Position numbers and translations under genes: made by a program
The notes under the pieces: generated by a model
Told to the model about the DNA's origin: nothing
Databases searched by the model: none
Seen by the model: only the letters and a program-made list of their open reading frames with translations
In this document: piece after piece, positions 1-19,574 of the stretch
Layout of the letters: each line of letters opens with the position of its first letter
Numbering within the stretch: the stretch's first letter is position 1
Source: Chloroflexota bacterium
GTDB lineage: Bacteria; Chloroflexota; Dehalococcoidia; Bin125
Reading direction: 5' to 3'
Assembly: GCA_003228175.2 (NCBI GenBank)
Contig: QGNQ01000003.1
Coordinates: forward strand, 28,360-92,359
DNA length: 64,000 nucleotides

Positions 1-140
1 TGGACCGCGATACGGTGGGGCTGGTTGAGGCCGTGGGCCTCGTGATCGACGAGGTGCTGCCCGTGCGGGGGCTACCGCGCTTGCTGCCCGCGCGGTTGAT
101 CTGCGCCCGGGCGCCGCGAGGCGATGCGGATCGGGCCTGA
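1..140 (+). CDS. 3' end of a CDS, possibly a class I SAM-dependent methyltransferase (partial)
   Basis: Frame 3 is open from the window edge: DRDTVGLVEAVGLVIDEV...DADRA, TGA at 138-140. 'LDRDT..LVE..G' resembles methyltransferase C-termini. Confidence 0.4.
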   Translation, partial: DRDTVGLVEAVGLVIDEVLPVRGLPRLLPARLICARAPRGDADRA

Positions 141-170
141 GGCCAGGCGACCCCTCGCCGATGATCGTTC

Positions 171-929
171 ATGCGGAACTCGTTCCTGCAGCGTCTGCTG
201 CATGTACGCCGATTCGTGTGGGACCGCCGCCCACACCTCATCTGGCTGCTCGTCGCCGGCGTGATCGCCGTCGACCTGCCGTCGGGGGCGCTGCATGCGC
301 CGCTGACGATCGCGGCGGTGTTCCTGGCGGCCGGGTGGTCCCATGCGTTCCAGCGGCGACGGATGAATCATTCCTTGCGCTGGGCCCGGATCGAAATTGG
401 GAAGCTGCGCAATCGGTCCGACACGTTCGAGCGGGCCGCGACGATCGATCCGGTGACGGGGCTGGCCAACCGACAGGCGTTCTACTCGAAGCTGTCGGAG
501 ACACTCGCGAAGCCGTTGCATGGGGTTGAGGCCCCGGCGCTGCTGCTCATCGACCTGGACCGCTTCAAGGTAATCAACGACACGTACGGACACGCGGCGG
601 GCGACGCAGTGCTGATGCACATGGCGCGGGTGCTGCAAGAGGAAACACGACCAGCGGATCTGGTGGGGCGGCTGGGTGGGGACGAGTTCGGGGTGCTGCT
701 GCATCGGACGACGGCGGATGCGTTGCCGCGGATGCTGCAACGCATCCAGCGGGCGGCGGGCGCGCGTCCGCTGCACACGATGCGGAACGGCGTTGAGATC
801 TTCGGCTCGCTGAGCGTTGGCGGGGTGATGCTCTGGGAGTACCCCGACATTGACGCGGCGCTGATGGCGGCTGATCGCGGCCTCTACGCGGACAAGGAAC
901 GCCTGGGCGCAAACCCACGATCCGCGTAG
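171..929 (+). CDS. Membrane-anchored diguanylate cyclase (GGDEF)
   Basis: Two N-terminal hydrophobic segments; DPVTGLANR, DLDRFKVINDTYGHAAGD, I-site RPAD, intact RLGGDEF. Confidence 0.9.
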   Translation: MRNSFLQRLLHVRRFVWDRRPHLIWLLVAGVIAVDLPSGALHAPLTIAAVFLAAGWSHAFQRRRMNHSLRWARIEIGKLRNRSDTFERAATIDPVTGLANRQAFYSKLSETLAKPLHGVEAPALLLIDLDRFKVINDTYGHAAGDAVLMHMARVLQEETRPADLVGRLGGDEFGVLLHRTTADALPRMLQRIQRAAGARPLHTMRNGVEIFGSLSVGGVMLWEYPDIDAALMAADRGLYADKERLGANPRSA

Positions 930-933
930 GGAG

Positions 934-3597
934 CTAGGCCCGGCTCGGGCGAGCCGTGACCTTCAGCGGACGCGGCGCGGCGAGCGGGATGAGCGGCGGC
1001 GGCGCACTCCGATCGACGCGCAGCCGCTGCAAGCGCAGGGAGTTGGCCATCACGCTGAGGCTGGAGAGGGTCATGGCGAAGCCCGCGACAATCGGCTCCA
1101 GGAAGCCGCGGTCGCCGAAGAGCCACTCGAGCCCCCCCGGCACGGGACCAATGACCTGGAAGACCTGGTAGAAGAGCCCTGCCGCTACGGGGATCAGCAG
1201 CAGGTTGTATCCGAAGGCCCAGATCAGGTTCTGATGAATCGTGCGCAAGGTCGCGCGACTGACGGTGAGCGCCTGCGCAACACCGCGTGGGTCGTCACGC
1301 ATGAGGGTCACGCCGGCGGCTTCGATGGCGACATCCGTGCCGCCGCCCATGGCGATGCCCACGTCCGCTTGCGCGAGCGCCGGGGCGTCGTTGATGCCGT
1401 CGCCGACCATGGCGACGACGTGCCCCTGCGCCTGCAGCCCCGAGACGACAGCCGCCTTCTCGTGCGGTTGGACCTCTGCGATGGCTTCGTCCAGGCCGAG
1501 CGTCGCGCCGACCGCTCGCGCGGCCCGATGATCATCGCCGCTCAGCAGCACCGTGCGAAGCCCGGCATCCTGCAGACGCCGCACGGCCTCCGCGGCGGCG
1601 GGCTTGATCGTGTCGGCGAGGGCGAGGACGGCGACGACTTCCCCGTCGACGGCGACGTAGACAGGTGTCGCGCCTTGGGAGGCGAAACGCTCCACGTGGG
1701 GCGCGGCCCCGGCGAGATCGATACCAGCCGTTGCCATGAGGCGCGCGTTGCCGACCTGCACAAGGGCCCCGTCGACAGTGGCGTGAGCGCCCTGTCCAAC
1801 GACGGCCTGGAATCCGCCAGCCTGGGGAAGGCGAAGAGCGGCAGCGCGGGCGGCGTCCGTGACGGCTCGCGCCAGGGGATGTTCGGAGTCGCGCTCGACG
1901 GCGGCGGCGGCGGTGAGGACGGCGTCACGCGTCTGCCCCGAGAGCAGGGCGACATCGGTCAGGGCGGGGGCGCCGCGCGTAAGGGTGCCGGTTTTGTCGA
2001 AGATCACGGTATCGACGGCGGCGAGACGCTCGATGGATTCGGCGGAGCGGAAGAGCACGCCGAGTTCGGCCGCACGACCGCTACCCGCCATGATCGCCGT
2101 GGGGGTGGCGAGGCCGAGCGCGCAAGGGCAGGCGATGACGAGCACGGCGATGGCGTTGAGTGTCGCCAGGGTGAGGGAAGGCGAGGGTCCCAGCGCGAAC
2201 CAGAGCCCGAAGGAGGCAGTCGCGATCAGCAGGACGGCCGGCACGAAGACGGATGCGATGCGGTCGGCGAGGGCCTGGACAGGGGCCTTGGACGCCTGCG
2301 CCGACTCGACGAGGGCGATGATCCGGGCCAGCACGGTGTCCGCGCCCACCTGGGTGGCGCGGATGCGCAGGGATCCGCCGCCGTTGATCGTTGCGCCGAA
2401 TACGGGCTCGCCGGGCGCCTTGTCGACGGGCATGCTCTCGCCGGTCAGCATTGACTCATCGACGGTGGTGCGGCCATCGACCAACGTGCCATCGACGGGG
2501 ATCTGCTCGCCGGGCAGGACTCGCATGACGTCACCGACGGCAAGCTCGGAGACCAGCAGCTCGACCTCCTCACCGTCGCGGAGCACACGGGCGGTCTTGG
2601 GTCGCAGGTCCAGCAGACGCCGGATCGCGGCCGAGGTGCGTCCTTTGGCGCGCGCTTCCAGATAGCGGCCCAGAGAGACGAAGCCAATGATGATCAGGGC
2701 CGTCTCATAGAAGGTCTCGCGCTCCAGGCTGGCGTCCCGGAAGGGGCCTGGGGCGAACGTCGCGACGATGCTGTAGGTCATCGCGGCGGAGGTACCGAGC
2801 GCAATGAGGACGTTCATGTCGGCGCCGCCATGGCGAACCACGGTGAGGGCGGCGCGGATGATGCGACGGCCGCTGAAGGCGAAGACCGGCATGGCGACGA
2901 CGAAGAGCGTGAGAAAGAGGGCGTCCTTGTCGAAGTTGAGGTCCGCCCAGCGATTGATCTGCAGGGCGATGAACGCCGCCCAACCGAGGGCGAGCGCGGC
3001 GGCGGCATCGATCAGCAGGCTGCGACGTTCGGCCGCTTTGCGGCGCTCCTCGGCCTCTCCGGCATCCAGCGCCGTGTCGGTGTCGGAGAGGATCACTTCG
3101 TAGCCGACGGCGGCGACGGCGACAGCGAGCTTTTGCGGTGAGACGGCGCCGCTGACGAATCGCACGGTGGCGCGTTCGGTCGCGAGGTTGACCGTGGCCG
3201 ACTCGACGCCATCCAGGCGCGTGAGCGCCCCCTCAACTTTGGCGACGCAGGAAGCGCAGTGCATGCCGGCGAGCGCGAGCGTGACCTCATCGACTGGGAC
3301 GTTGTAGCCGGCCTGTGCGACGGCGGCCGTGAGTTCGGCCTGGTCTGGAGACGCGCCGGAGAAGCGCACGGTCGCGCGCTCCGTGGCGAGGTTGACGGCG
3401 GCCGAGTCGACGCCGGGGACCGCGGCCAGGGCCTTCTCCACACGGCCGACGCAAGCCGCGCAGTGCATGCCCGCGATCGGCAGATCCAGCGTGCAAGCGT
3501 CGCCCCGCTCGGACGCGGCACCCGGGTCAGGCTCCGGGGCGAAGCTCTCCGGCGGCGGTGATGTATCAAGCATGGGGAACAAGGTGGTGTCGGGCAC
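934..3597 (-). CDS. copA: Heavy-metal (Cu+-type, P1B-1) P-type ATPase
   Basis: Two HMA domains (GMHCAAC, GMHCASC), [25 protein letters not shown], plus YN and MxxSS transmembrane motifs. Confidence 0.92.
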
Positions 3598-3600
3598 CAG

Positions 3601-4053
3601 CTACTCGCTCTCGCCGGTCGCGGGCAGGGCCGCGGCCAGGGCCCGCTCGTGCAGGCCGCGCTCAATCACGGGGCAGTGGTAGTGGCCGGTGCTGCGCTCG
3701 CTCTGGAGGCGCGCGCCAGTCTCGGCGATTGTTCGGTCGAGGACATCGCGCAGAGCGACAGCCTCGGTGATCCAGCCGTCGATTTGATCGCGCTTGCTGC
3801 GCAGCAGTTGGAAAACGTGGTCGCAGTTGACCGCGTCGCCATCGGAGGCCTGGAGGATGTCGGCGATCTCCGAGAGCGAAAACCCGAGCGTCTTGGCCTT
3901 CGCGACGAAGTCGAGCCGGTCCCGGTCGGCGCCGCCGTAACGACGGTAGCCCGACGCTTCTCGGGCGGGCGCGGGCAGCAGGCCCGTGCTCTCGTAGTAG
4001 CGGATCGTCTTGGCGGGAATCCCGCTCCGCTTCGCGAGCTCGCCAATACGCAT
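3601..4053 (-). CDS. MerR-family heavy-metal-responsive transcriptional regulator
   Basis: Likely start ATG 4053 (MRIGELAKRSG..TIRYYE..GLL...SGYRRY) after a GGAGG RBS; C-terminal HYHCPVI; 3 nt upstream of copA. Confidence 0.88.
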   Translation of the reverse strand: MRIGELAKRSGIPAKTIRYYESTGLLPAPAREASGYRRYGGADRDRLDFVAKAKTLGFSLSEIADILQASDGDAVNCDHVFQLLRSKRDQIDGWITEAVALRDVLDRTIAETGARLQSERSTGHYHCPVIERGLHERALAAALPATGESE

Positions 4054-4077
4054 CGATCTGCCTCCATCCGTGCTCCT

Positions 4078-4109
4078 ACCGTAAACCCTCCCCTCGGCAG
4101 GAAGGTCAA
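4078..4109 (-). promoter_or_regulatory. MerR-type promoter/operator for the merR-copA operon
   Basis: The minus strand reads TTGACC-N20-TACGGT, with the dyad ACCTTCC-N8-GGAGGGT overlapping the -35 and spacer. It resembles CueR/ZntR-type long-spacer promoters. Confidence 0.75.
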
Positions 4110-4151
4110 ACCGGGCCCAGGCCTGAGGAGGCGCTCGATACACTTGCGCCC

Positions 4152-5405
4152 ATGCCACGCGTGCTGCTCCTGATCCCCAGCGCCAGCTATCGGGCGCACG
4201 ACTTCCTGGCGGCGGCGGGGCGGTTGGGGCTGGATGTTGCCGTGGCGTCGGACGTGGGCCAGCCGCTGAACGCCTTCCCGGAGCGATCGCTGACGGCCGA
4301 TTTCAGCGACGTGGAGGCCGGGGCCGCCACGATCGCGCGCTACGCGGACAGCTATCCGGTCGACGCGATCGTGCCGGTGGACGATGGCGGAACAGCGCTG
4401 GCGGCACGTGCATCGGAGCTGTTGCGGCTGCCCGCGAACGCGCCCACGGCGGTGGGCGCGACTCGCAACAAGGCGGAACTGCGTCAACTGCTGGCGGAGG
4501 CGGGGCTGCCCTCGCCGGCGTTTCGGGTGTGCGCGTTCAATGAGGACGCAGCGGCGGTTGCGACGGAGCTCTCGTTCCCGGTGGTGGTCAAGCCGCTGGC
4601 CCTGGCGGGCAGCCGGGGCGTGATGCGGGCGGACGATGCAGGCGCGTTCGTGGCGGTCGTCGAGCGGCTGCGGCGGATGCTGGAACAGCCGGCCACCGCG
4701 GCCGCCTGCGGGGCGACCGCCGACCGCTATCTGGTGGAGGGCTACCTGCCGGGAGACGAAGTCGCGCTGGAGGGGCTGCTGTTGGACGGGTCGTTGCAGG
4801 TGCTGGCGCTATTCGACAAGCCCGATCGCCTGGAGGGGCCGTTCTTCGAGGAAACGATCTACGTGACCCCTTCGCGACTGACGGCCGAGCGGCAGGCGGA
4901 GATTCGCGAGGTGTCGGCGCGGGCGGCATTGGCGTTGGGGCTGACGCGGGGACCGCTGCACGTGGAGTTGCGCCTGAATGACGCGGGCGCGTTCCCGATC
5001 GACATCGCCTCGCGGACGATCGGCGGACACTGCGCGCGATGTTTGCGATTCGACGTCGGCGAGGGGGCCGGCGCGGCAGCGTCGCTGGAAGAAATCGTGC
5101 TGCGACAGGCGGTCGGGCTGTCGCTGGAGCGGCTGGAGCGAGAGACGCCGGCGAGCGGTGTGATGATGATCCCGACGCCCGGCGCGGGGCGGCTGCATGC
5201 CGTGCACGGTCTGGAGGAGGCACGAGGGGTGCCGCTGGTGTCCGAGGTGACGATCGCGACGCCACTGGGGCACTTGTTCGTGCCGTTGCCGGAGGGCGGC
5301 GCCTACCCGGGGTTCATCTTCGCGCGGGCGGAAACGCCGGAGGCGGTGGTGGGGGCGCTGCGCGCGTCGCACGCCCGGCTGCGCTTCGAGCTGGAGCCCG
5401 TGTAA
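4152..5405 (+). CDS. ATP-grasp domain protein (peptide/amide ligase-like)
   Basis: RNKAELR, FPVVVKPLALAGSRGV, YLVEGYLPGDEVALEG, GPLHVELRL, IDIASRTIGG. Confidence 0.85.
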   Translation: MPRVLLLIPSASYRAHDFLAAAGRLGLDVAVASDVGQPLNAFPERSLTADFSDVEAGAATIARYADSYPVDAIVPVDDGGTALAARASELLRLPANAPTAVGATRNKAELRQLLAEAGLPSPAFRVCAFNEDAAAVATELSFPVVVKPLALAGSRGVMRADDAGAFVAVVERLRRMLEQPATAAACGATADRYLVEGYLPGDEVALEGLLLDGSLQVLALFDKPDRLEGPFFEETIYVTPSRLTAERQAEIREVSARAALALGLTRGPLHVELRLNDAGAFPIDIASRTIGGHCARCLRFDVGEGAGAAASLEEIVLRQAVGLSLERLERETPASGVMMIPTPGAGRLHAVHGLEEARGVPLVSEVTIATPLGHLFVPLPEGGAYPGFIFARAETPEAVVGALRASHARLRFELEPV

Positions 5406-5458
5406 GCGCGCTAGCTCTTGTCGGGCGCCGGTCGATGATCGCGGTAGGGAGTCGCGCG

Positions 5459-5926
5459 ATGCCTGCCAACGATTCGAACCCGCACGCATACGATGCCGGC
5501 ACGCCGGTGCAGGCGGTGATGAGCCGGGACGTGTTGTCTGTCGACGCGGACACCACGCTGGGTGCGGCACGGGAGCAGATGCGCCTGGCCGGCGTGCACC
5601 ACTTGCTGGTCTACGACCGCAGCCGACTGGTGGCGGTGATCTCCGACCGGGATTTGCTGGCGCATCTGAGCCCGCGTCTGGGCACGATGGCCGAGCAGCG
5701 GGACGACACGAGCACCCTGCTGCGTCGGGTGTTCCAGGCCGCGAGCTACCAGCCGGTCACGATCCCCTGCGGGGCGACGATCGCCGCGGCCGCCGCGATC
5801 TTGCTGCGGCACACGATCTCATGCGCGCCGGTCACGGACGCGCTGGGAGAAGTAGTCGGCGTGTTGACGTCGCGAGACCTGCTGGGGGCGCTCAGCCGCA
5901 TGGCGCCCGAGCGTCGCGCGAGCTAG
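5459..5926 (+). CDS. CBS-pair domain protein
   Basis: VQAVMSRDVLSV...HHLLVYD..LVAVISDRDLL and ISCAPVTD..GEVVGVLTSRDLL; AGGGA upstream of ATG 5459. Confidence 0.8.
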   Translation: MPANDSNPHAYDAGTPVQAVMSRDVLSVDADTTLGAAREQMRLAGVHHLLVYDRSRLVAVISDRDLLAHLSPRLGTMAEQRDDTSTLLRRVFQAASYQPVTIPCGATIAAAAAILLRHTISCAPVTDALGEVVGVLTSRDLLGALSRMAPERRAS

Positions 5927-5933
5927 CGAGCCG

Positions 5934-6713
5934 CTAGTCGGACGCCTGCGCCGCCAGCAGACGCGACTCAAAGGCGCGAGCGATGTCCGGCAGGGCCTCG
6001 CTGAGCACGCTGGAGTTGGCCTGTATGAGCTGCAGGGTGCCCAGCACGCGGCCGCGCGGGATCTGGTGCATTTGCAACTCGAACTCGAAGGGCAGACCAG
6101 AGATCTCGATGCTGATGAGCACGCCGAAGGCGACGCTGTCGGCGAGGAGGGCCTCGGCGTCAACGAGCTCGACGCTGGTCAGCGAGATCGAGGGGCCGTC
6201 CGGGTCCGCGCCGCCGAGCGAGCTCTCCATGGCGTCGGCGAAGCACTGCTCCAGCACGGTGGACTGCGTCAGCAGCTCCTGTGCGGCCAGGCGGCCGGCG
6301 CTGACGTCGAGGTCGCCTTCGTAAACCTCCACCTCGGAGCCAACCTGAAGGAACTCCAGGCCCCCACTCTGCTGGAAGTCGCGCTCGCGCTCGACGAGGG
6401 AATCGTTGTCGTCGCCCTCGCTGAAGGCCTCTGCCAGGGCGCGCAGGTCTCGGCATGACTCGGAGGCGAGGAAGTCGGAGTCGTCGTCGTCGTCGGAGCT
6501 GCTGCCGGAGTCGGTGTCTTCTTCGACCTCCCAGTCGCCATCGGGCAGATCGGCGAGTTGGAGCAGGCCGGCGGCGGCGATCGTCTCGGCGTCGGCGAGG
6601 CTCTCGGCGGCGGAGGGCCCGTCGTCGCCACCGCAAGCGGCGAGGGCGAGGGCGCCGAGGAGGAGGAGGGGGAGGAGCAGGAGGGATCGAGATTTCAGGA
6701 GGGTGGGTGGCAT
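5934..6713 (-). CDS. Hypothetical lipoprotein
   Basis: Hydrophobic signal peptide with lipobox LAAC-GG; acidic mature region. Confidence 0.75.
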   Translation of the reverse strand: MPPTLLKSRSLLLLPLLLLGALALAACGGDDGPSAAESLADAETIAAAGLLQLADLPDGDWEVEEDTDSGSSSDDDDDSDFLASESCRDLRALAEAFSEGDDNDSLVERERDFQQSGGLEFLQVGSEVEVYEGDLDVSAGRLAAQELLTQSTVLEQCFADAMESSLGGADPDGPSISLTSVELVDAEALLADSVAFGVLISIEISGLPFEFELQMHQIPRGRVLGTLQLIQANSSVLSEALPDIARAFESRLLAAQASD

Positions 6714-6797
6714 GGTCGGACCTTCCGGGTGCGGTCGAAGTGTTTCACGGGCAGGGGTTAGGCGGGAGAGGAGGGACCGACCACGGATCGCCAGTGC

Positions 6798-7748
6798 TCA
6801 GAAGACGATCACGCAGCGACCACGGGTGCCGCCGGCTTCGAGGCGGGCATGCGCGTCCGACGCCTTGGTAGGCGGGTAGGTGGCGGCGACACGGAGGGCG
6901 ATGCGGCCGTCCTCGGTGAGGCGGCGGAGTTCGTCCAGCAGGTCGGCGCGATGGTCGTAGGTGGTGACCATGGTTCGATGGAAGGCGATCTCGCGCTCGC
7001 CGGTGCCGCGCCAGCCACGCACGGAGACGAATGCGCCGCCGTCGCGGAGGGCGCCAACGGCGAGTTCGTTCTGGACGGCGCCGTCGGCGAGGGCATCGAC
7101 GCCGTCGGGCGCGACCTTGCGGATCTGGGCCGCGATATCGTCGCCGCGTGGCACGACGATATCGGCCCCGAGGTCGCGGACGAGGGCTTCATCGGCGGGA
7201 GAGGCGTCGGCGATGACGCGCACGCCAGCGACCTTGGCGAGTTGCACGACGTAGCCGCCGTAGCAGCCGGCGGCGCCGGTCACGGCGATGGTCTGGCCCG
7301 GCTGCAGGGTGAGCTGGTCGAGCGAGAGCCTGGCCGTGAGGCCGTTCATGGGCAGTGCGGACGCTTCCGGGTGGGTCGCGCCGGCGGGCGCGCGCGCGAC
7401 GGAGTCCGCGGCGAGGACGATGCTCTGTCGGTATGCGCCATGGCTGCCGCTGGGGACGACCATGGCCATGACGGGATCCCCGATGGCGAGATCGGTCGTC
7501 GTGCCGGGGCCGATCTCGTCGATGACGCCGGCCGCGTCCATGCCGGGGATATAGGGCGGCGGGTCCTTGCGCAGCGTCTCCGCGCGGTCGCCGTTGCGAA
7601 CGAACGTGTCGGTTGGGTTGACGGCGGCGGCGTGGACCCGCAGTCGGACCTCGCCGGTCGCGGCGTGGACCTCCGGCAAGTCGACGACTTGCAGCGCTTC
7701 GGGGCCGCCGAACTCGATCACGCCTACGCCTTGTGTGGCACCTTGCAT
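6798..7748 (-). CDS. NADPH:quinone reductase-like MDR-family oxidoreductase
   Basis: FGGPEAL, AVNPTD, PGMDAAG, VTGAAGCYG; likely start ATG 7748. Confidence 0.85.
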   Translation of the reverse strand: MQGATQGVGVIEFGGPEALQVVDLPEVHAATGEVRLRVHAAAVNPTDTFVRNGDRAETLRKDPPPYIPGMDAAGVIDEIGPGTTTDLAIGDPVMAMVVPSGSHGAYRQSIVLAADSVARAPAGATHPEASALPMNGLTARLSLDQLTLQPGQTIAVTGAAGCYGGYVVQLAKVAGVRVIADASPADEALVRDLGADIVVPRGDDIAAQIRKVAPDGVDALADGAVQNELAVGALRDGGAFVSVRGWRGTGEREIAFHRTMVTTYDHRADLLDELRRLTEDGRIALRVAATYPPTKASDAHARLEAGGTRGRCVIVF

Positions 7749-7844
7749 GGGATCCTGCTTCCTTTTCGCCGGGGGGGGGCCGGCCCGATTGATCGTCGCT
7801 GCCGACAAGTGTGATTGATCGGAGGCGGACTCGCACGCCCGGGC

Positions 7845-7946
7845 TCAGCTCGTAGCGGGGATCGTGTCGTCTCCGCCGACGCAGGCAGCGAGGGCGACCG
7901 CGCCGATCAGGAAGACACCGAAGATCAGGAGGAGCCGTCGGGGCAT
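7845..7946 (-). pseudogene. 33-codon ORF consisting of little more than a lipoprotein signal peptide (remnant or mini-lipoprotein)
   Basis: MPRRLLLIFGVFLIGAVALAACVGGDDTIPATS then TGA; same LAAC-xGGDD style as other lipoproteins in the window. Confidence 0.5.
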
Positions 7947-8001
7947 GTGATTCTCGGGAGCCCCTGGAGGAAGGATCGCAGGGGGACGGTTGATACGACG
8001 C

Positions 8002-9105
8002 TCAGTCATCGTCTGATCGGGGAACGATCTCGATTCCAGGCGGGGCGATGTCCGCGCGCTGCCTGATCGCTTTCTCCGCCCTTGCCTTCAGCTCTTCAAC
8101 TGATACGTGCTCGCGCGGAACCCCCGCAGCATCAAGTTCACCCAAAAGGTCCTGGATGATCAGACTGGCTAGCCCTGGAGCCGTCGCAGTCACGATTTCG
8201 CGCGGGTGGTTGAGGCCAAACGGATAAATTCCTCGTCGAATTAGATCTTCAATCTCGTCAGGTGAAACGGTCTCGGACCGAATGTCTTGTTCCACGGCCG
8301 CTCCGAAGGGCGTACGGGGGCGCCGCTGTCGCGGAGCATCAGGCTCGACAACTCTCTCAAGCTCGCGGATCACTGCAACATGGCCGTTGAAGAGGTTCGT
8401 GACGTCGTCATAGTACGAAAGCGCATGAACAAGGAGGTACGACATAGCCTCGTACTGGCCGCGCCGCGGAGTGAGCTCGGCGAATAGTGTCGCCCACCAG
8501 TCGCCCATCGGCGTATTGCTGTCGACCGGGAATGCACGCATATCGGACAGAAGGAGCGAGAGCGTTTCGTGGAGATGACTGGGACGGGTCGATCCATCGG
8601 GCGCAACGTCGAGGAAAGCGCCGCTTCCGACCGCATCCGACAATGCCCCGATCTGAAGGCGGTCCCCAGTGACGTGGCGCATCAACCCCATAATAATCAG
8701 ATCGCGTTGGGCCTGAGAGACAGGAATCTGACTCGTGGGATCCGCTTTAGGATCCAACTGCAGGGATTCCCGTACCTCGGAGAGCATTGTGTGACGCGCG
8801 TGAGCGGAGTCATGGTATCGAGACACCATGTGGCTTAAGTTCGCCGTGAACTCACTGACAAGACGGCGGCGTCTCCGCGCCTCCGCTTCGGCACGCTCCC
8901 GCGAGCGACGTAGGTATTCGACCAGCCCGACTGTGACGTACGTGCCGAGGACGACACCGAACGCTTCGGTTGCGATATTCACGGAGGCATCATCACTCGG
9001 CCCGAGAAACGCGAGCAGGAGGAAGCCCGCAACGAGCACAGCAGCACCTGCTGTCCATAACTGGAACGTAGTGCTAGCGAGGACCGCTAGGAGGGAGTGC
9101 TTCAC
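8002..9105 (-). CDS. Hypothetical protein with two N-terminal TM helices
   Basis: 367-aa ORF, visibly more AT-rich than its neighbours; no motif recognised. Confidence 0.65.
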   Translation of the reverse strand: MKHSLLAVLASTTFQLWTAGAAVLVAGFLLLAFLGPSDDASVNIATEAFGVVLGTYVTVGLVEYLRRSRERAEAEARRRRRLVSEFTANLSHMVSRYHDSAHARHTMLSEVRESLQLDPKADPTSQIPVSQAQRDLIIMGLMRHVTGDRLQIGALSDAVGSGAFLDVAPDGSTRPSHLHETLSLLLSDMRAFPVDSNTPMGDWWATLFAELTPRRGQYEAMSYLLVHALSYYDDVTNLFNGHVAVIRELERVVEPDAPRQRRPRTPFGAAVEQDIRSETVSPDEIEDLIRRGIYPFGLNHPREIVTATAPGLASLIIQDLLGELDAAGVPREHVSVEELKARAEKAIRQRADIAPPGIEIVPRSDDD

Positions 9106-9115
9106 CTCACACCAA

Positions 9116-10543
9116 CTACGACATGTTCAGAGGAGCCAACTGCTCCTCGGTGGGCTCCGCTCAACAGAACCAGGCTTCGGAGAGGCCGGGGACCCAGCCC
9201 GCGGGCGGCGACTCAGGTCGTGGCAAGGGCAGGCCGGCCGCCAGGGCGGCGTCGGAGCGGATGCGGGTGAAGACGCGGGCGTTGTCGGTGGGCTCGTCGT
9301 GCTTGCAGGAGACGCGAGCGACGAATTCGGCGAGCTTGGCCTGCAAGGCGTCGACGGCGGGGTCTGGGTTGCGCCAGGTGTGCGTGAGACCGTCGGGGTC
9401 GAAGCCGGTCAGGTGGCCGTCGGTTTGCGCTTGGGCGATGAGCGGGGAGCCGGGGGGGAGCAGCAGCCGCAGCCCATATTGCACGGGGGGCACGCTCTGG
9501 ATGAGGTCGTGGCGGGCGATGAAGTCCAGGATGGCGTTGAAGTCATTGAGGGTGGTCCAGGGCGTGAAGGGCAGCCAGGTGGGGCGAAGGGGGAGTCCGG
9601 CGTCGCGGGTGAGGGTGAGGGCGCGCTCCATGTCGGCGGCGGTGTGGCCTTTGTCGAGGCGCTGGAGCAGGGCGTTGTCGACCGACTCGAAGGCGCTGGT
9701 CACCCAGGCGACGCCGAGGCCGGGGAGGGCGCCCGCCTCCTCTTCATGCTCCAGCAGGTGCTCGACTTTAATCGTGACGTCCAAGCTGAGGCCGGGGTGA
9801 CGCCGCGCGAGGATGCGCAGCAGCGACATGGCGTGGGGCACGGCGTTGAAGAAGTCCGGGTCGCCGAAGGTGATGTGGCGCGCGCCCAGCGCGAGTTGGG
9901 CGTCGATGTCGGCGAGGACGATTTCGGGCGGGACGAGGCGCAGGCGACCGGCGTACGTGGGCGTCAGGGGGCAGTGTGTGCAGCGGTGCGCGCAGCCGCG
10001 CGTTGCTTCGACGTAGCCGGCGAGTCGTTCTTGGGGGGCGCCGTCGGGCAGGACGATGGTGGCGCGGGCGTATTCATCGAGCGAGGGCAGGCCGCTGCGA
10101 TCGGGCAGGGGCATCGCCTCTCGGGGGAAGAGCGGCTGCGGGCCGGCGCCTGCGACCGCCAGTGGAGTGCGCGTCTTGATGGCGTCCGCCGTCGCGACCA
10201 GGGGGCCTTCGTACTCGCCGCCGATGACCGCGCTGACGGGGGAGTCGTCGGGCAGGTGCGCCGCCAGCTGTGAGGCGTAGAGGCCGTAGAGCACGATCGG
10301 CGCTTCGAAGTTCTGCTCGCGCAGTTGCGCGGCGAGTCGCAGGGCGAGTCGCGAGGCGGTGTGCATGGGCACGGAGATGGCGAGGAGGTCGATGTCGGCG
10401 AAATGGGAAGCCGCGGCGGGCTGGACGGCGAGATCGAGCGTGCGCACGTCGTGGCCGGCGTCGCGCAGCGCGGCGGCGGGAGAGGCGAGACCGAGCGGCT
10501 GATGGCCTTGCTCGTAGGCGGAGACGAGGAGAACACGGGTCAC
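9116..10543 (-). CDS. CUAEP-tail radical SAM (seleno)protein with B12-binding-like N-terminus; Sec predicted at TGA 9161-9163
   Basis: CAHRCTHC radical SAM motif. The end reads TGG TTC TGT TGA GCG GAG CCC ACC GAG GAG CAG...TCG TAG = WFC-U-AEPTEEQLAPLNMS*. Confidence 0.85.
9130..9148 (-). promoter_or_regulatory. SECIS-like hairpin for the radical SAM UGA
   Basis: GAGGAGC-AGTTG-GCTCCTC, a perfect 7-bp stem starting at +13 after the UGA. Confidence 0.7.
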
Positions 10544-10641
10544 GGCCCCAGCGTAGACGCCAGGGGACGGCGGGGCGGGTAGTATGTGGCGGCTTTGGGA
10601 GCGGGTGAACGGATCCAGGCCAGGGAGCCGGGGGGTGGACT

Positions 10642-12828
10642 ATGCGACGCATCTTCACGATTCCAGTGCTGGCTGTGCTGGTGGGGCTGTTCGGGCTGCT
10701 GGGGCAGGGGGACTCGCGGCTGGTGGCGAGCAACGCCCCCGGCGGGGTGGGGGTCGCGCAGGTGCCCGATCAAGCGCCGCAGACGCGCGAGGTGATCCTG
10801 CTGGACGGCTGAAATCTGGTGGGCTGGACCGGCGGCGACGTCGCGACGAGCGTTGTGACGAACGCGCTAGGGGGCGTGTTCCGCAGCATCCACGCCTTCG
10901 GCGGAGAGACACAAGCGTTCGAGACGGTCACGGCGACGGGGCCGGCGTTCCTGAACAACCTGTCGCAGGTGGACGGCGGGGATGGCCTCTGGCTCTTCTC
11001 CCACGGCGACACGTTCTGGGAGCAACCGGTGATCACGGGGGCACGATCCGTGGCGCTGTCGGCGGGCTTCAATCTGGTCACGTGGACGGGCCTGCACGGG
11101 ATGCCGATCGCGGACGCACTGGCGTCGCTGGGCGAGGCGGTGGAGAGCGCGTTCACCTATGAGGAGCTGTCGGACACGTTCCTCAGCTTCGGCCCGGCGC
11201 TGCCGCCGGCCTTGAACACGCTGGCGGCGCTGGCCTACGGGGAGGCGCTGTGGCTCCGGGTCAGTGAGGCGCGGACGTGGGAGCAGCCCGCGCCGCCGGC
11301 GGGCAGTGTGGCAGTGAGCGCGGACGGACTGGCCTCGGTGACGGTGCCGGTGGGGCAGTCCGCCGACCTCGTTGTGCGGGCGATTCCCGCGGAGGAGTGG
11401 CCGGCGGAGATCAACGGACAGCCGGTCATCGCGGGGTACACGGTTGCCCCGGCCGCGCTCGAGCTCGCGAGCGGACTACGCACGTCCAACGGCCCGTTCA
11501 CGTCCGAATCGGGCTTCTGGGAGTTCGAGGTGACGCCGGACGGTGATCCGGCCCCGATTGTCACCCTGACACCAACCGGGTTCACGGTTTCCCCACCCCC
11601 CCGCCAGTTCTATGACGGCACGGCGGACGGCGATTTCGTCCGGACGCCTATTGAATACGGCGTCTCCGAGGCCAACCGCGTGAGTTATCGCCGGCCGTTC
11701 ACATTCGCTGATCTGTCACAGGAGGAAGTTCTGATCTTCCTGACAGACGCTCCAGCCGTGCAGGGGCTGTTCGAGTTCAACCATGAAACGGGCCATGCGA
11801 CCTTTTCGGACAGCCCGTTCGGACCATTCAGGTTCACGTACGGTCCAAATGATTCGCGCCAGACGAACTTCGATGTGCAGCCCGGCGCCGACGTCCCGAT
11901 CGCGCCGCCGAATGGCTTCTGCGCGAACGAAGCAGCACGCGGAAGCCTGGAATATCTCTTCGATACCTCCTGGGGTGACCACACCTTGAAGTTCGAAGTG
12001 ACGGACGCGGAGCTGTGCCCCGGCGGCAGCGGCGATCCCGGTGGTGGGACCTGCATGCCCGACGTACTCATCCTCGATTCGCTCTTCGATCTGATCGATG
12101 ACCAGCTGAACCCCGGGATTCTGGGATTCGACGGCCCGTTCCTCGAAGAGTTCGGTGACCGGGTAGATCAGACGCGCATCGTGGGCAGCTCGTGCCCGCT
12201 CACCGAACAGCAAATCGAGGACTGGATCGCGCCCCTCATTCCGGCGTCGCCGAGCGCAGATGGCGTCTTCGCTCCCGGCGGAGACGCCCCGCTCGGCCAG
12301 CCGTTCGATGTCTTCAACGACGATCTTGGCCTGCTGGATCACCTTCACGTCGCGCAGGCCGACGCGACGCCATACGTCATCGTGGCCATGGAGCTCGTCG
12401 ATGCGGTCCCCCTCGCCAGCGAGGACCTCTTCTTCGTCTACGCGGCCGTCTTCGATCGGGACGGCAACCCCACCAACAACTTCGTACCGCTACCGCAGTT
12501 CCCCGGGGACTACTTCCTGGGCACGGACCTCTGGTACGAGGCGAAGTACAGCCCGATCAGCGGCGAGTGGGCGCTGTCGCGTCGGATCGTGATCGGTGGC
12601 GCCCCTCGCTTCTTCCCCACCGACGCCCTGGTCCTGATCGCCGGCAACGTCATCTACTTCGTCATCCCCCAGGACGAGTTCACTGTCGGCAGCGGGGAGG
12701 ATCTGCCGTTCCGCATGACCGCCTTCACTTACGACAAGACCGACCCGTTCGGCTTCGGGGCCGGCCTGGCGGCAGGCGACACGACGCCCTTCGTGCTGGA
12801 TCCGCTGGCGTTGCTGCCGCTGCCGTAG
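10642..12828 (+). CDS. Large secreted/surface protein interrupted by an in-frame TGA at 10810-10812 (nonsense allele or recoded)
   Basis: ATG 10642 gives the signal peptide MRRIFTIPVLAVLVGLFGLLG. The frame continues ...EVILLDG-TGA-NLVGWTG into ORF 10819-12828, which contains the repeat SVALSAGFNLVTWTG. Confidence 0.7.
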
Positions 12829-12862
12829 GGCGGGTGGGGACGAGAGTGGGCGAGAGGGGCCG

Positions 12863-13477
12863 CTACTTGCTGGCGGCGCCTTCCTTCTGGGGCTGGTAGT
12901 AGGGGTTGGTGCCGGCGGCGTGGTCCGTGGTATCGACGACTTCGACGATCTCGGGGATGTGTTCCTTCACCGCCACTTCGATGCCCTGCTTGAGGGTCAC
13001 GTTGGCCATGCCGCAACCGGCGCAGCCCCCGCCCATCTCGATATAGGCCTTGTCCCCCTCCACGGCGAGCAGCGTGACAACGCCGCCGTGTGAGGCGATG
13101 CCGGGGTTGACGTACTCGTCGAAGAGGATCTGGACGCGCTCTTCCAGCGGGTTGTCCCAGACGGAGTTGGGGTTATCGAACTCCAGGCCGCTGGCCTCAG
13201 GCCCTTTGTATTCGTAATGGATGGCGACGCCGTTGAGCTTGTCGGCGTTCTCGCGCTCGACGAAGACGTGGAAGCCGTTGGCGTCGACGGTGGTGTCGTC
13301 CGGCTCCGCGCCCTGCTCGACAAGGGTGATGACGTGGTCGAATCCCTGACCGCCGCGACCGACAATCTTGAGTCGCAGGCCAACGACCGTCTCGGGATAA
13401 CCCGCGATCGCGGCGCTGAGCGCGGAGACCGCGGCCTCTGAGAAGGCAAGTTTGATCTCGCCGGTGGCGTCTGTCAT
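12863..13477 (-). CDS. nfuA: NfuA-type Fe-S cluster carrier (A-type-like domain + NifU-C)
   Basis: N-terminal degenerate HesB/IscA-like domain (GLEFDNPN); C-terminal VNPGIASHGG...MGGGCAGC...TLKQGIE...VDTTDHAAGTNPYY. Confidence 0.88.
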   Translation of the reverse strand: MTDATGEIKLAFSEAAVSALSAAIAGYPETVVGLRLKIVGRGGQGFDHVITLVEQGAEPDDTTVDANGFHVFVERENADKLNGVAIHYEYKGPEASGLEFDNPNSVWDNPLEERVQILFDEYVNPGIASHGGVVTLLAVEGDKAYIEMGGGCAGCGMANVTLKQGIEVAVKEHIPEIVEVVDTTDHAAGTNPYYQPQKEGAASK

Positions 13478-13624
13478 GCCGCAGCCTCCTTCGTGTGATC
13501 CGTGATCGCATCGTAGCGCAGGCGTCGTGTGTGGAGGGCGGGCGTGATCCTGGGCACGGGCGGCGGTCGTCTGCGCCCGTATGCTGGCCGCGATAGGCGT
13601 GGCGGACTGGAGGAGGAGGGGCGG

Positions 13625-15076
13625 ATGCGCAAGCCCGACTACGACATCGTGGTGATCGGTGGGGGCCCGGCGGGGTTGGCGATCGGTCGCTTCGCACCCA
13701 AGCTGGGAGCGCGTGTGGCGATCGTCGAGGAGGGGCGGCTGGGCGGCGACTGCACATGGTCGGGCTGCGTGCCCAGCAAAGCGTTGATCGCGAGCGCGCG
13801 GGCCGCGTCGGCGGGGCGCAACCGGGCCGCGCTGGGTCTGCCGCCGTTGCCGCCGCCGGAGCGAGTGGAGATTGGGCCGGTGCTGACGCGCATCAAGGCG
13901 CTGCAGGAGCAGATCTACGAAGAGTCGGACCGGCCCGACTTGCTACCGGGTGTCGATGTGATCTCGGGGCGGGGACGCTTCGTATCGGCGGACGCGATCG
14001 AGGTGGACGGGCGCCGGATCACGGCGGCGACGGTCGTGATCGCGACGGGGGCGGGGCCCGTGGTGCCGCCGATTCCGGGACTGGCGGAGTCCGGCTATCT
14101 GACGAACCACAGCATCTGGGAGATCGCGCGACTGCCGGATCGGCTGACAGTGATCGGGGGCGGGCCGATTGGCCTGGAGCTGGGGCAGGCGTTCCAGCGG
14201 CTCGGGTCGCAGGTGACAGTGGTGGAGATGGCGCCGCAGATCCTGCCGCGGGCGGAGGCGGACGTCGCGCAGGCGCTGAGCGTGGAGTTGGAAGCCGAGG
14301 GGATGATCATCCACACGCGCACGGCGGCGACGGAGGTGCAGTGCGAGGGCGATCAGCATCGGCTCATGCTGCGCGGACCGGAGGGGGAGTTGACGGCGGA
14401 GGGCGACGCGTTGCTCGTGGCGGTCGGTCAGCGACCGAACGCGTCGGATCTGGGGCTGGAGGCGGCGGGGGTGCGGACGACGGACGGGGGCGGGGTCCGG
14501 GTCGACGCACAGTTGCGGACCTCGAACAAGCGCGTGTACGCCTGCGGCGATGTGATCGGCGGCTATCAATTCACGCACACGGCCGCGTACGAGGCGAGCG
14601 TCGTGATGCACAACGCGCTGTTCCCCCTGCGCAAGCAGCGGGCCGACTACTCCACGACGCCCTGGGTGGTGTTCACGGATCCGGAGGTCGCCGGAGTGGG
14701 GCTGACCGAGGCGGAGGCGCGGGCCAAGCACGGGGACGGGGTGCACACCTATGAACGGTCGTTCCGGGAGCTGGACCGAGCGCTGCTGGATGGTCGGTGC
14801 CCGGGGTTCTTGCGCATCGTGACGGTGGGGCGGCGGCGCAAGATCGTGGGGGCGCAGATCGTGGGACCGTCGGCGGGCGAGCTGATTCAGGAGCAGGTGC
14901 TCGCGATCTCGCAGGGCATGAACGCGATGGAACTGGCGATGACGCACCACGCCTACCCCACGCTGAACGAGGCGTCGCGTTGGGCGGCGGTGGCGGCGGT
15001 GGACGACATGCTGCGTTCGCGATCGGTGCAGCGGGTGGTGGGGATCGCGCGGGCGCTGAACAAGCGGCCTTGGTGA
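13625..15076 (+). CDS. Class I pyridine nucleotide-disulfide oxidoreductase (MerA/LpdA-like)
   Basis: GGGPAG, GGDCTWSGCVPSKAL, GGGPIGLE, YACGDV, HAYPTLNE; GGAGGAGG RBS before ATG 13625; no MerA C-terminal CC pair. Confidence 0.88.
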   Translation: MRKPDYDIVVIGGGPAGLAIGRFAPKLGARVAIVEEGRLGGDCTWSGCVPSKALIASARAASAGRNRAALGLPPLPPPERVEIGPVLTRIKALQEQIYEESDRPDLLPGVDVISGRGRFVSADAIEVDGRRITAATVVIATGAGPVVPPIPGLAESGYLTNHSIWEIARLPDRLTVIGGGPIGLELGQAFQRLGSQVTVVEMAPQILPRAEADVAQALSVELEAEGMIIHTRTAATEVQCEGDQHRLMLRGPEGELTAEGDALLVAVGQRPNASDLGLEAAGVRTTDGGGVRVDAQLRTSNKRVYACGDVIGGYQFTHTAAYEASVVMHNALFPLRKQRADYSTTPWVVFTDPEVAGVGLTEAEARAKHGDGVHTYERSFRELDRALLDGRCPGFLRIVTVGRRRKIVGAQIVGPSAGELIQEQVLAISQGMNAMELAMTHHAYPTLNEASRWAAVAAVDDMLRSRSVQRVVGIARALNKRPW

Positions 15077-15201
15077 CCGGGGTGCAGGATCGACGGGAGC
15101 GATCTGTGAGGGCTTCCGGGTCGTAGTTGGTAGAGTGCGACCAGCCGCGAATGTGTGCGTTGTACGTCACGTCGCGGCCAGCGGGGATGCGGGGGTGTGG
15201 A

Positions 15202-15510
15202 GTGCGGATCAACTTTTCGGAGGAGGCGCTGACGCTGGCCCAGGAGCGGGGCGGCGTGATGGCGATCGACTACATCCCGCCGATCGGTTGAGGGGGCTCC
15301 CCGGAGGTGTCGGTCGACACCTATCTCAAGGGCAAGAACACCAGCCAGTACATGCGGGTGGAGCAGGACGGGCTGCAGATTCTGGTCGCGGGGGGGCTGC
15401 AGCGCTTCGCGGAGCGGATTGAGCTGGACGCGAAGAAGTTTCTCTTCTGGCGCTCGTTTGACGTGTGGGTGGAAGCGAAACACGCGCACGGCCCCACTTG
15501 AGCGCACTAG
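15202..15510 (+). CDS. Small HesB/IscA-like candidate selenoprotein with two in-frame UGA codons (codons 30 and 100)
   Basis: GTG 15202 (or in-frame ATG 15187): MRINFSEEALTLAQERGGVMAIDYIPPIG-U-GGSPEVSVDTYLKGKNTSQYMRVEQDGLQILVAGGLQRFAERIELDAKKFLFWRSFDVWVEAKHAHGPT-U-AH*. TGA at 15289 and 15499, TAG at 15508. Confidence 0.75.
15305..15322 (+). promoter_or_regulatory. SECIS-like hairpin for UGA 15289
   Basis: AGGTGTC-GGTC-GACACCT, a perfect 7-bp stem starting at +14; the GGUC loop recalls the E. coli fdhF SECIS apical loop. Confidence 0.7.
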
Positions 15511-15515
15511 GTTGT

Positions 15516-15534
15516 GACCCGCCGTGCGCGGGTC
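15516..15534 (+). promoter_or_regulatory. SECIS-like hairpin for UGA 15499
   Basis: GACCCGC-CGTGC-GCGGGTC, a perfect 7-bp stem starting at +15; no U-tract follows. Confidence 0.6.
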
Positions 15535-15624
15535 TGTTGGCAGCGGAGCGAGGCTGGACGCATCACCCCGCTGCCGGCCCCCTCTATCGCAGCTCTCGCG
15601 ACCAGGGGAGGTGATGAGGGAGGG

Positions 15625-15699
15625 TGGAGCGGGGGACGGGATTCGAACCCGCGGCCTCCTGCTTGGAAGGCAGGAGCTCTACCACTGAGCTACCCCCGC
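15625..15699 (-). tRNA. tRNA-Gly(TCC)
   Basis: GCGGGGGTAGCTCAGTGGTAGAGC...CCTGC-CTTCCAA-GCAGG...GGTTCGAATCC...CCCCCGC-T-CCA; full cloverleaf, U discriminator, encoded CCA. Confidence 0.96.
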
Positions 15700-15784
15700 T
15701 CGCGGGCCCAGCCTACCAAGGCCATCGGCTAGTATGCCGCCGAGATCGCCGGCCCGGTCCGGCGTCGCAAGGCAGGAGGCGCGC

Positions 15785-16924: not shown

Positions 16925-16969
16925 CGGGCGGCGTTGGCCCGCGGCGGGGCGGCGACGGGGTGGCGGCGG

Positions 16970-17512: not shown

Positions 17513-17750
17513 GCTTGCTCGCTTTCGATCGGCGGCGCGCCGTGCGACATCCGGGCGGCCGCCCCATCTTGCCTCGATCATCGGCGGCCCTAGGCACGTC
17601 CCGCAGGGGGCCGGCGCGACGTCGTTCTCGCGGTCGCGGAGGCGCGGGCGCGACGGGCTTCTGGGGGAAACCCCTACGGAAGCAGCGATCCGGTCCGATG
17701 ATCACGCTACCTGGTGCGCCATCGATCGCCGGGCAGCGAGGGAGCACGCG

Positions 17751-17960
17751 ATGCCGAATCATGACTTTCTCCCGATGTCGGACCGGCTGGCGGTGACCGC
17801 CGCCAGCGAGAACGAGACGGCCGTCATCGCGCGCGAGCTGCGCGCCGTGGCGGCGACGCTGCCAGATGCGGCGGCGATGACGCTGCCGCGCAAGCGTGTC
17901 TGGGATCGACTGTCGGCCGAGATGAAGAGTGGCGAGAGTCGCGCCCGGGGCGCGGCCTAG
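17751..17960 (+). CDS. Small hypothetical protein (69 aa)
   Basis: GAGGGAG RBS, MPNHDFLP...RKRVWDRL...; directly upstream of the sigma-like ORF. Confidence 0.5.
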   Translation: MPNHDFLPMSDRLAVTAASENETAVIARELRAVAATLPDAAAMTLPRKRVWDRLSAEMKSGESRARGAA

Positions 17961-19565: not shown

Positions 19566-19574
19566 CTGCCGGGA

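Follow-up and report, generated by a model that had tools for sequence, protein, structure and literature searches.

The region at positions 934 to 15,510 of a 64,000-nucleotide stretch of DNA from a Chloroflexota bacterium of the class Dehalococcoidia (GenBank assembly GCA_003228175.2, contig QGNQ01000003.1, positions 28,360 to 92,359 of the forward strand; the whole stretch is called the window, and positions are those of the window unless otherwise stated) contains a conserved three-gene module. It consists of a gene for a radical S-adenosylmethionine (SAM) selenoprotein with a C-terminal CUAEP tail, in which U is selenocysteine (Sec), an nfuA-like gene for an iron-sulfur (Fe-S) carrier, and a gene for an ATP-grasp enzyme of the L-amino-acid-ligase type. 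These three genes occur together across distant lineages despite reshuffling of their order. The same 15 kb also carry a small protein with two Sec residues, a flavoprotein disulfide reductase and a merR-copA pair, and probably comprise four functionally separate units (the module, the small selenoprotein, merR-copA and the reductase) that are neighbours in this marine Dehalococcoidia lineage. An earlier note, made from the sequence alone, had proposed a single selenoprotein-based metal-handling system. All the genes that it named at 934-15510 were recovered as open reading frames (ORFs) with family matches, and the unrelated genes that it placed between the units are present: a CBS-domain protein, a lipoprotein, a quinone oxidoreductase and two family-less proteins (hyp367 and hyp669). 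When co-localisation and co-occurrence were examined, the proposed unity held for nfuA, the radical SAM gene and the ligase gene, and was not supported for the small protein, the reductase and CopA/MerR.

The DNA derives from a 2.45-Mb metagenome-assembled genome that is 84.7% complete, and it also recurs in seawater and marine metagenome runs. Gene neighbourhoods were compared in 47 radical SAM loci fetched from genomes of the class with about 9 kb per side (the genome loci), in 80 radical SAM loci at 40-57% identity from metagenomes, many of them on short contigs (the metagenome loci), and in 80 genomic loci of the small-protein gene, with up to 10 kb per side, from Dehalococcoidia, Acidimicrobiia and Nitriliruptoria (the small-protein loci). 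Class-wide presence was counted in 401 sampled Dehalococcoidia genomes; in metagenome-assembled genomes of 84-99% completeness, a gene that is not found is not necessarily absent. Neighbour counts for nfuA and the ATP-grasp gene were made with tblastn; de novo clustering of ORFs gives too low a count for nfuA, since antisense ORFs are favoured in DNA of high G+C content. Partner distances were evaluated only where at least 3 kb of sequence flanked the radical SAM gene both ways, partners being counted within 5 kb (n = 60; 42 genome and 18 metagenome loci). The class genomes are kin, and their locus counts therefore overstate independence; stronger evidence comes from the varied gene orders of the metagenome loci.

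The radical SAM gene (9116..10543, minus strand) encodes a protein of 475 amino acids with the cluster motif CAHRCTHC and with Sec461 encoded by the TGA at 9161-9163. Its C-terminus, ...WFC-U-AEPTEEQLAPLNMS, reads WFCUAEPTEEQLAPLNMS. The protein scores 533.5 bits against NF040546, above the cut-off of 500, with residues 4-470 aligned to positions 1-467 of a model of 468, and it has both the tail and the CxxxCxxC cluster motif of that family. The tail reads CUAEP in 40 of the genome loci and CCAEP in five, two being unresolved, and the metagenome loci are divided among CUAEP (38), CCAEP (35), CUSEP (1) and tails that are cut off (6). Twelve aligned sequences share an invariant W-F-C-U/C-A-E-P-T-x-x-Q tail, and the only invariant Cys residues among them are the CxxxCxxC triad and the tail pair. 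The structure is predicted with a mean local confidence (pLDDT) of 89 and a template-modelling score (pTM) of 0.90, the tail staying at a pLDDT of about 80 up to the Cys-Sec pair, and its nearest fold neighbours are AprD4, TsrM and OxsB. NF040546 was detected in 49 of the 401 class genomes, a count that includes the unpublished genome G244 and all 25 other genomes of the window's family; the commonest phyla among the Atlas clusters of NF040546 are Myxococcota, Actinomycetota and Acidobacteriota. The family is called uncharacterised in a 2022 preprint by Haft (10.1101/2022.07.06.499078), its accession does not appear in the main text of a 2026 review (PMC13188914), and a literature search with the terms CUAEP and CCAEP returned no other relevant paper and none giving the nfuA-ligase context.

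The nfuA-like gene (12863..13477, minus strand) encodes a two-domain Fe-S carrier with an N-terminal Fe-S_biosyn domain (PF01521, 30.0 bits against a cut-off of 26.3, residues 9-104) and a C-terminal NifU domain (PF01106, 71.2 bits against 27, residues 116-181). The A-type N-domain has no Cys and the Nfu domain has the CxxC motif, GGGCAGCG being present, which is the make-up of an NfuA-type two-domain carrier; the score against the NfuA equivalog TIGR03341 is 105.6 bits, below the cut-off of 269.35. No second NifU-domain gene was found in this genome, which is 84.7% complete. The ATP-grasp gene (4152..5405, plus strand) encodes the three domains of an L-amino-acid-ligase-type enzyme, each above its Pfam cut-off: ATP-grasp_4 (PF13535, 104.3 bits), LAL_C2 (PF18603, 48.1 bits) and ATPgrasp_N (PF18130, 30.9 bits). 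No NCBIfam model scored above its own cut-off for this protein.

The radical SAM gene is accompanied by an nfuA gene in 40 of the 47 genome loci, usually 6-90 bp upstream and in the same orientation, and in 41 of the 80 metagenome loci; the ATP-grasp gene accompanies it in 37 genome loci (downstream, on the opposite strand) and 44 metagenome loci. Both partners were within 5 kb at 45 of the 60 well-flanked loci. Among the 42 genome loci of this subset, both were present in 33, nfuA only in three and neither in six; the corresponding numbers for the 18 metagenome loci were 12, one and four, with the ligase only in one more. Five gene arrangements were seen among the 66 loci with both partners (44, 16, 3, 2 and 1 loci). 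Any other gene family occurs near the radical SAM gene in at most 27 of 128 loci, and no conserved precursor-peptide gene accompanies it in the loci compared. Across the class, a full-length nfuA was present in 61 of the 401 genomes, comprising 48 of the 49 with a radical SAM match (the exception being G290) and 13 of the 352 without one. These data support two suggestions of the earlier note, that NfuA may serve the radical SAM enzyme and that the radical SAM and ATP-grasp enzymes may make or modify a product together.

The nearest named family of the CUAEP enzyme by hidden Markov model (HMM) comparison, and its nearest characterised relative, is ArsL. ArsL belongs to arsinothricin biosynthesis and converts SAM to methylthioadenosine and a 3-amino-3-carboxypropyl species, which is placed on its substrate As(III) while the latter is bound by the Cys motif of the C-terminal tail (10.1101/2024.02.01.577332). 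By analogy, the group that the CUAEP enzyme takes from SAM would be 3-amino-3-carboxypropyl, and its acceptor a soft atom X bound by the two adjacent chalcogen residues, Cys-Sec (or Cys-Cys), in the conserved tail. This would yield a 2-amino-4-(X)butanoate, a methionine- or glutamate-like amino acid, which the ligase may couple to a second amino acid to give a dipeptide, and NfuA would load or repair the [4Fe-4S] cluster of the radical SAM enzyme. As the tail offers two chalcogen ligands against the three of ArsL, the acceptor probably differs from As(III). A literature search for ArsL together with an L-amino acid ligase found nothing relevant.

A different chemistry for the module is conceivable, if unlikely, in which the radical SAM enzyme alkylates no free metalloid. 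The acceptor would then be the sulfide or selenide of a sacrificial cluster that NfuA rebuilds, or the Cys-Sec tail would be a redox element similar to that of thioredoxin reductase and the substrate an amino acid or peptide used later by the ligase. NfuA rebuilds the cluster of lipoyl synthase, and such close linkage to nfuA is uncommon among radical SAM genes; moreover, the fold neighbours named above act on organic substrates, and the tail has two chalcogen ligands where ArsL binds arsenic with all three of its Cys residues (10.64898/2026.04.29.721666). The 12 aligned sequences, however, contain no conserved Cys motif for an auxiliary cluster, the lack of a conserved precursor-peptide gene speaks against a peptide substrate, and the nearest named HMM family is still ArsL. 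Transfer of the 3-amino-3-carboxypropyl group to X, as in ArsL, is kept here as the working scheme.

The operon that nfuA and the radical SAM gene usually form is interrupted, in the window's genus, by hyp669, a family-less gene of 669 codons at 10819-12828 (plus strand). It is preceded in frame by a 56-codon ORF starting at 10642 (plus strand) with a signal-peptide-like start, MRRIFTIPVLAVLVGLFGLL, and the two are parted only by the TGA at 10810-10812, in the context LLDG-TGA-NLVGWTGG; the gene later contains the repeat SAGFNLVTWTG. The TGA has the same reading in contigs of two other runs, and a 9-bp hairpin lies about 29 nt further on. It could mark a pseudogene in which a Trp codon became a stop, a read-through site or a third Sec. 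Directly downstream of the radical SAM gene lies hyp367 (8002-9105, minus strand, 367 codons), with about 60% G+C in a window of about 70% G+C; it had no match in Pfam or NCBIfam and no relative in any of 127 radical SAM loci, and was possibly acquired recently. Elsewhere, in the window's family and a second family (L124-L170; for example L151 2809-4593, L163 6144-7526 and L155 7695-8834), the flanks of the module include an S15 (CocE/NonD-type) peptidase gene divergent from nfuA in 26 of 48 loci and a major facilitator superfamily (MFS) transporter gene downstream of the radical SAM gene in 22. Near the module in the window's family there are also genes for an HDAC-type deacetylase (in 18 loci) and for a methyltransferase (in 19), and DUF169 is another lineage-specific extra. 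The peptidase, transporter, deacetylase and methyltransferase of these relatives are absent from the window itself.

Three in-frame TGAs, one in the radical SAM gene and two in the small-protein gene, are genuine Sec codons, because the genome has the Sec machinery, homologues have Cys at these positions and SECIS-type (selenocysteine insertion sequence) hairpins are conserved. The assignment of Sec in the earlier note is thereby borne out, each of the features by which a bacterial selenoprotein is recognised (machinery, Cys forms and hairpin) being present. The machinery is complete, with tRNA-Sec, selD (which has its own in-frame TGA), selB and selA. The selA and selB genes are on the same contig as both selenoprotein genes (17037-18401 and 98156-99238 of the genome contig, respectively), selA preceding the window by about 10 kb and selB following it by about 6 kb. 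An Rfam scan of positions 1-20000 of the window at E 1 returned tRNA-Gly only. Contigs from other public runs have an identical reading at all three TGAs, and in a related strain the first TGA is kept while the residues after it have changed.

A 7-bp hairpin follows each of the three TGAs by 19-21 nt, with a G within the first two loop positions, which agrees with the bacterial SECIS model of a hairpin 16-37 nt after the UGA with a G in the first two positions of the loop (PMC13188914). The hairpin of the radical SAM gene (9130..9148, minus strand; located by folding) has the loop AGUUG, 19 nt past the UGA. The first hairpin of the small-protein gene (15305..15322, plus strand), which serves Sec30, has the stem AGGUGUC/GACACCU and the loop GGUC, and the second (15516..15534, plus strand; located by folding), which serves Sec100, lies just past the TAG stop codon and has the loop CGUGC. 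The folding energies of the three were no better than those of shuffled sequences (z -0.5 to +0.2) in this 70% G+C DNA, and comparative conservation was therefore used. The Sec30 hairpin is formed by the codons of the peptide E-V-S-V-D-T-Y. Across 76 distinct family sequences, all seven stem pairs form in 68, six in six and five in two, and the loop is GGTC in all 76. Pairing is found in 98% of cells and falls to 28-57% if the partner is shifted out of register by 1-3 nt, and two sequences have a compensatory change from G-C to A-T at synonymous sites of the stem. At the second site, a hairpin with a stem of at least 6 bp and a G in the first two loop positions was found in 25 of 30 Sec forms versus 9 of 45 Cys forms.

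The small-protein gene (15202..15510, plus strand) encodes 102 residues, with Sec30 at the TGA 15289-15291 in the context G-U-G-G and Sec100 at the TGA 15499-15501 in the context H-x-H-G-P-T-U-x-H. The start was set by homologues at the GTG at 15202 and not at the ATG at 15187. Site 1 is TGA in all 80 small-protein loci. At site 2, 29 loci have TGA and 48 have Cys, two more have a variant tail, and one is cut by the contig end. Its 22 database homologues are all fragments of 62-69 residues that start just past the first TGA, 11 of them stopping at the position of the second TGA and 11 running on with Cys-x-His. An exhaustive profile search gave 117 representative clusters at E <=0.001, mostly fragments; database entries of this branch are almost all pieces of 58-73 residues cut at the UGAs. 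A few full-length relatives have Cys at site 1, and some CC-motif relatives have G-C-C-G.

An AlphaFold2 model of the small protein, built from the 76-sequence alignment, has a pLDDT of 90.8. Its top Foldseek matches are IscA (1x0g, 1r94) and SufA (2d2a) at E values of 5e-5 to 1e-4. VIA-align 2 gave Z 9.2 for SufA 2d2a (root-mean-square deviation 2.9 over 85 residues), 9.1 for IscA 1x0g and 8.9 for IscA; the five best chains (Z 9.2 to 8.4) are SufA, three IscA entries and DsrR, and nine of the first ten rows, which reach down to Z 5.7, are HesB/IscA-fold or Fe-S-biosynthesis entries, the next row having Z 2.5. Read by eye, the register puts Sec, Sec/Cys and His at the ligand positions of A-type carriers, with Sec30 in the loop where these have G-C-S-G and the [U/C]-x-H tail where they have C-x-C, and it agrees with a non-significant hhalign alignment to the genome's own A-type carrier (E 0.07). 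Sec would thus replace the first ligand Cys, and Sec/Cys together with His would replace the C-terminal Cys-x-Cys. The protein may bind a metal or cluster, or carry a chalcogen, at this Sec/His site.

The small protein had no match in Pfam even at E 10, PF01521 included, and a profile search of the PDB gave none; PF01521 detected only the canonical A-type carrier on another contig and the NfuA N-domain in the genome itself. The HesB-like selenoprotein family TIGR01911 matched none of the 76 family members at E 0.01. NF041239 is the only library family touched and matches 74 of the 76 members at E <=0.01 (best E 8e-11), with the window protein scoring 29.3 bits as 102 residues and 27.9 bits in a 107-residue reading, below the cut-off of 40; a scan of its own genome with NF041239 at E 1 returned nothing. 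By sequence comparison, the small-protein family is placed as a divergent, mostly mis-called branch of NF041239, in which Sec appears to be the rule at the first ligand position.

The small-protein gene is a stand-alone gene with no conserved neighbour. Relatives of the window's genes in the 80 small-protein loci are few (reductase 4, radical SAM 3, nfuA 3, ATP-grasp 5, CopA 1 and MerR 5), and 76 loci have no convincing match to any of the three module genes within 10 kb. De novo clustering put the top neighbour family at no more than 12 of 81 loci, the neighbours being diverse housekeeping enzymes such as an aldo-keto reductase, IMP dehydrogenase, ABC-F and a nitrilase. In the reverse direction, the small protein was near the radical SAM gene in two of the 47 genome loci and in none of the 80 metagenome loci. 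Among the 401 class genomes, 17 have the small protein, 49 the radical SAM protein and five both, and NF040546 had no match in five Acidimicrobiia genomes that carry the small protein. At the closest small-protein locus (L015), the gene and nfuA are divergently oriented across an interval of 253 bp, and no reductase lies within 10 kb. In two loci that share flanking synteny and are therefore not independent, L037 (8135-10318) and L145 (about 4450-6632), the gene is divergent from a redoxin (AhpC/TSA-type) gene, which is followed by a family-less gene of about 243 codons; at L145 a glutaredoxin-like gene stands before the redoxin gene. For finding a partner, this thiol-redox neighbourhood may hold more promise than the reductase of the window.

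The reductase gene (13622..15076, plus strand; alternative start 13529) encodes a class I pyridine-nucleotide disulfide oxidoreductase with a CxxxxC redox pair and a C-terminal H-x-x-x-x-E. It scores below every equivalog cut-off, including 449 of 620 bits for NF004991 and 378.1 of 454.45 bits for MerA (TIGR02053). Pyr_redox is its only domain, HMA is lacking, and the C-terminus, ...ARALNKRPW, has no Cys. Judged from these sequence features, it is a disulfide reductase and not the MerA-like enzyme of the earlier note, and a lineage-specific neighbour that is found beside nfuA only in the window's genus. An extension of the reductase by Sec read-through of its terminal TGA (W-U-P-G-C) was considered and rejected, and the TGA is taken as a true stop, because the 70%-identical orthologue in L143 ends in TAA/TAG with no matching extension. 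The only orthologue (70% identity) is in a genome of the same genus (G138, 93% complete), together with nfuA and the radical SAM gene, and represents one of the 47 genome loci; the small protein was not found in that genome. Among the 80 metagenome radical SAM loci the reductase gave one meaningless 45-bit match. None of the 80 small-protein loci contains an orthologous reductase; a related oxidoreductase is near four, and the two that are adjacent to the small gene (L056 and L067) encode dihydrolipoyl dehydrogenases, with a lipoyl-E2 gene coming next. Beyond the small-protein gene lies an enolase-superfamily (mandelate racemase type) gene at 15785-16924 (plus strand) with an in-frame TAG at 15917-15919 (..RIAGY*YSGEP..), which divides a 44-codon head from a 312-codon body in one frame.

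The copA gene (934..3597, minus strand) encodes a Cu(I)-type P1B ATPase (TIGR01511, 565.1 bits against a cut-off of 397) with E1-E2_ATPase, two N-terminal HMA and Hydrolase domains (Pfam) and the CPC motif, as expected for a copper P1B enzyme. Upstream on the same strand is a gene for a MerR-family regulator (3601..4053; Pfam MerR_1, MerR and MerR-DNA-bind), which scores below the NCBIfam cut-offs for MerR (93.4 of 150.9), ZntR (86.3 of 168) and CueR (79.5 of 147.4), CadR being similar. Within the 98-bp intergenic region between merR and the ATP-grasp gene, an imperfect inverted repeat at 4085..4106 (7-nt arms, 6 of 7 positions complementary, 8-nt spacer; found by eye) overlaps a minus-strand TTGACC. 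This layout is that of MerR-type promoters and would make the site the promoter of merR-copA, with the repeat as a candidate operator; the repeat was not reported by an automated repeat search, and a promoter scan of 3900-4300 restricted to spacers of 16-18 nt found neither a sigma-70 site nor a terminator. CopA is near the module in 21 of the 47 genome loci, all of the window's family, and in one of the 80 metagenome loci, and MerR is near the radical SAM gene in one genome locus and no metagenome locus. The merR-copA pair is an ordinary Cu(I) efflux unit outside the conserved module.

The earlier note had united all of these genes, with the small double-Sec protein as the trans metal-delivery or redox arm of a MerA-like reductase and with CopA/MerR, NfuA, the radical SAM enzyme and the ATP-grasp enzyme in the same metal(loid) pathway. 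It had observed correctly that the reductase lacks the C-terminal Cys pair of MerA and is followed by the small Sec gene on the same strand (122 bp downstream), and the close packing of all genes within 15 kb and the Sec/His-rich site of the small protein suit such a scheme. The pairing of reductase and small gene, however, recurs at no other locus, the two adjacent matches belonging to 2-oxoacid dehydrogenases; G138 keeps a reductase where the small protein was not found, and L015 has the small gene by nfuA without a reductase. Adjacency of CopA to the module is limited to a single family, the small protein is linked to the radical SAM gene in too few loci for membership in the same system, and the His-Glu pair kept by the reductase is typical of dithiol-disulfide reductases. 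One common system is therefore very improbable. Scarcely more credible is a selenium-based delivery chain, in which the module would make a new organo-chalcogen or organo-metalloid amino acid, through a carbon-X bond formed on an atom that the Cys-Sec pair holds, for export or use as a dipeptide, and the IscA-fold selenoprotein, reduced by the adjacent reductase, would hand X or a cluster to the enzyme.

Several observations nevertheless weigh against the reading of the region preferred here, of a conserved module with ArsL-like chemistry beside three separate units. Neither partner is present at 10 of the 60 well-flanked loci, so that the module is not universal in the NF040546 family, and the occurrence of nfuA in 13 class genomes without a radical SAM match means that it is not strictly dedicated to the enzyme. 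The proposed 3-amino-3-carboxypropyl transfer is inferred from homology to ArsL that scores below the ArsL family cut-off. The reductase and small genes, being co-directional and 122 bp apart, could be co-transcribed. In 21 loci, all of the window's family, copA and the ligase gene are divergent immediate neighbours and could share regulation. Finally, the small protein and the radical SAM gene are within about 11 kb of each other in four of the five class genomes that have both, and also at L015 and L037; such proximity when they co-occur leaves room for a facultative Fe-S link, in which the IscA-fold selenoprotein and NfuA would deliver or repair the cluster of the CUAEP enzyme in Dehalococcoidia.

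A-type carriers and NfuA cooperate in E. coli, and the small protein has an IscA/SufA fold with Sec at a ligand position. Its gene is 0.25-11 kb from nfuA-radical SAM in the window, L015, L016 (G333), L037, L145 (G180) and L039 (G296), a set that spans three or more GTDB families. This link is nonetheless improbable: within the class, a radical SAM match is lacking from 12 of the 17 genomes that encode the small protein, and a small-protein match from 44 of the 49 that encode the radical SAM protein, the metagenome radical SAM loci and the 76 small-protein loci described above show no association, the L037 and L145 examples count as one by their synteny, and the genome has a canonical A-type carrier elsewhere. 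Four juxtaposed units remain the preferred reading of the region.

For NF040546, a widespread selenoprotein radical SAM family that is present here in Chloroflexota, the stable association with an Fe-S carrier and a presumably dipeptide-forming ligase suggests a concrete hypothesis, namely that the family is a second ArsL-like former of carbon-heteroatom bonds. In the small-protein family, a whole branch of IscA-fold proteins appears to use Sec at a cluster-ligand position, and the SECIS element of Sec30 is embedded in the family's most conserved peptide motif, which it holds frozen. What the window itself contributes is a negative test of one system with the reductase and CopA, the analysis of the frozen SECIS element, and a loose, facultative proximity of the small protein to the module in some Dehalococcoidia. 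It also gives cause for caution, in that a dense run of metal- or selenium-flavoured genes can be independent units set side by side.

Compared with known systems, the reductase is, like MerA and thioredoxin reductase, a class I flavoprotein with a CxxxxC pair. MerA has a C-terminal Cys pair and an NmerA (HMA) domain, and thioredoxin reductase has a GCUG tail, whereas the window's enzyme lacks a C-terminal CC, an HMA domain, a Sec extension and a conserved partnership with a small selenoprotein. The small protein shares the fold of the A-type carriers IscA, SufA and ErpA and differs from them in having no match at the sequence level, a His as third ligand and two further His before it. The CC/Se motif family NF041239 includes CC-motif relatives with G-C-C-G where the small-protein branch has G-U-G-G, and the branch is set apart by this Sec and by a second Sec/Cys in H-x-H-x-P-T-[U/C]-x-H. 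In the available text of the review cited above (PMC13188914), NF041239 is listed as a CxxU family with one Sec, no G-U-G-G family is given, and TIGR01911 is described as likewise having Sec at a ligand Cys.

The nearest solved structure to the ligase is that of BL00235 (3VOT, E 4e-38 over residues 43-393), followed by BacD (1e-13), and the LAL_C2 domain is carried by the window's enzyme also; in contrast to these enzymes, it is fixed beside a radical SAM gene and nfuA. The radical SAM protein is a full member of NF040546, with no difference from that family. To ArsL (NF040542) it is homologous over residues 4-403, with a CxxxCxxC core and an N-terminal Rossmann-like domain in common, and both enzymes have a conserved chalcogen-rich C-terminal tail. 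The score of 283.2 bits is below the ArsL cut-off of 450 and places the protein outside that family. The tail is W-F-C-U/C-A-E-P, with two ligands, in place of the R-C-C-L-K-C of ArsL, with three, and the partner genes are nfuA and an L-amino-acid ligase gene where ArsL has arsM/arsQ.

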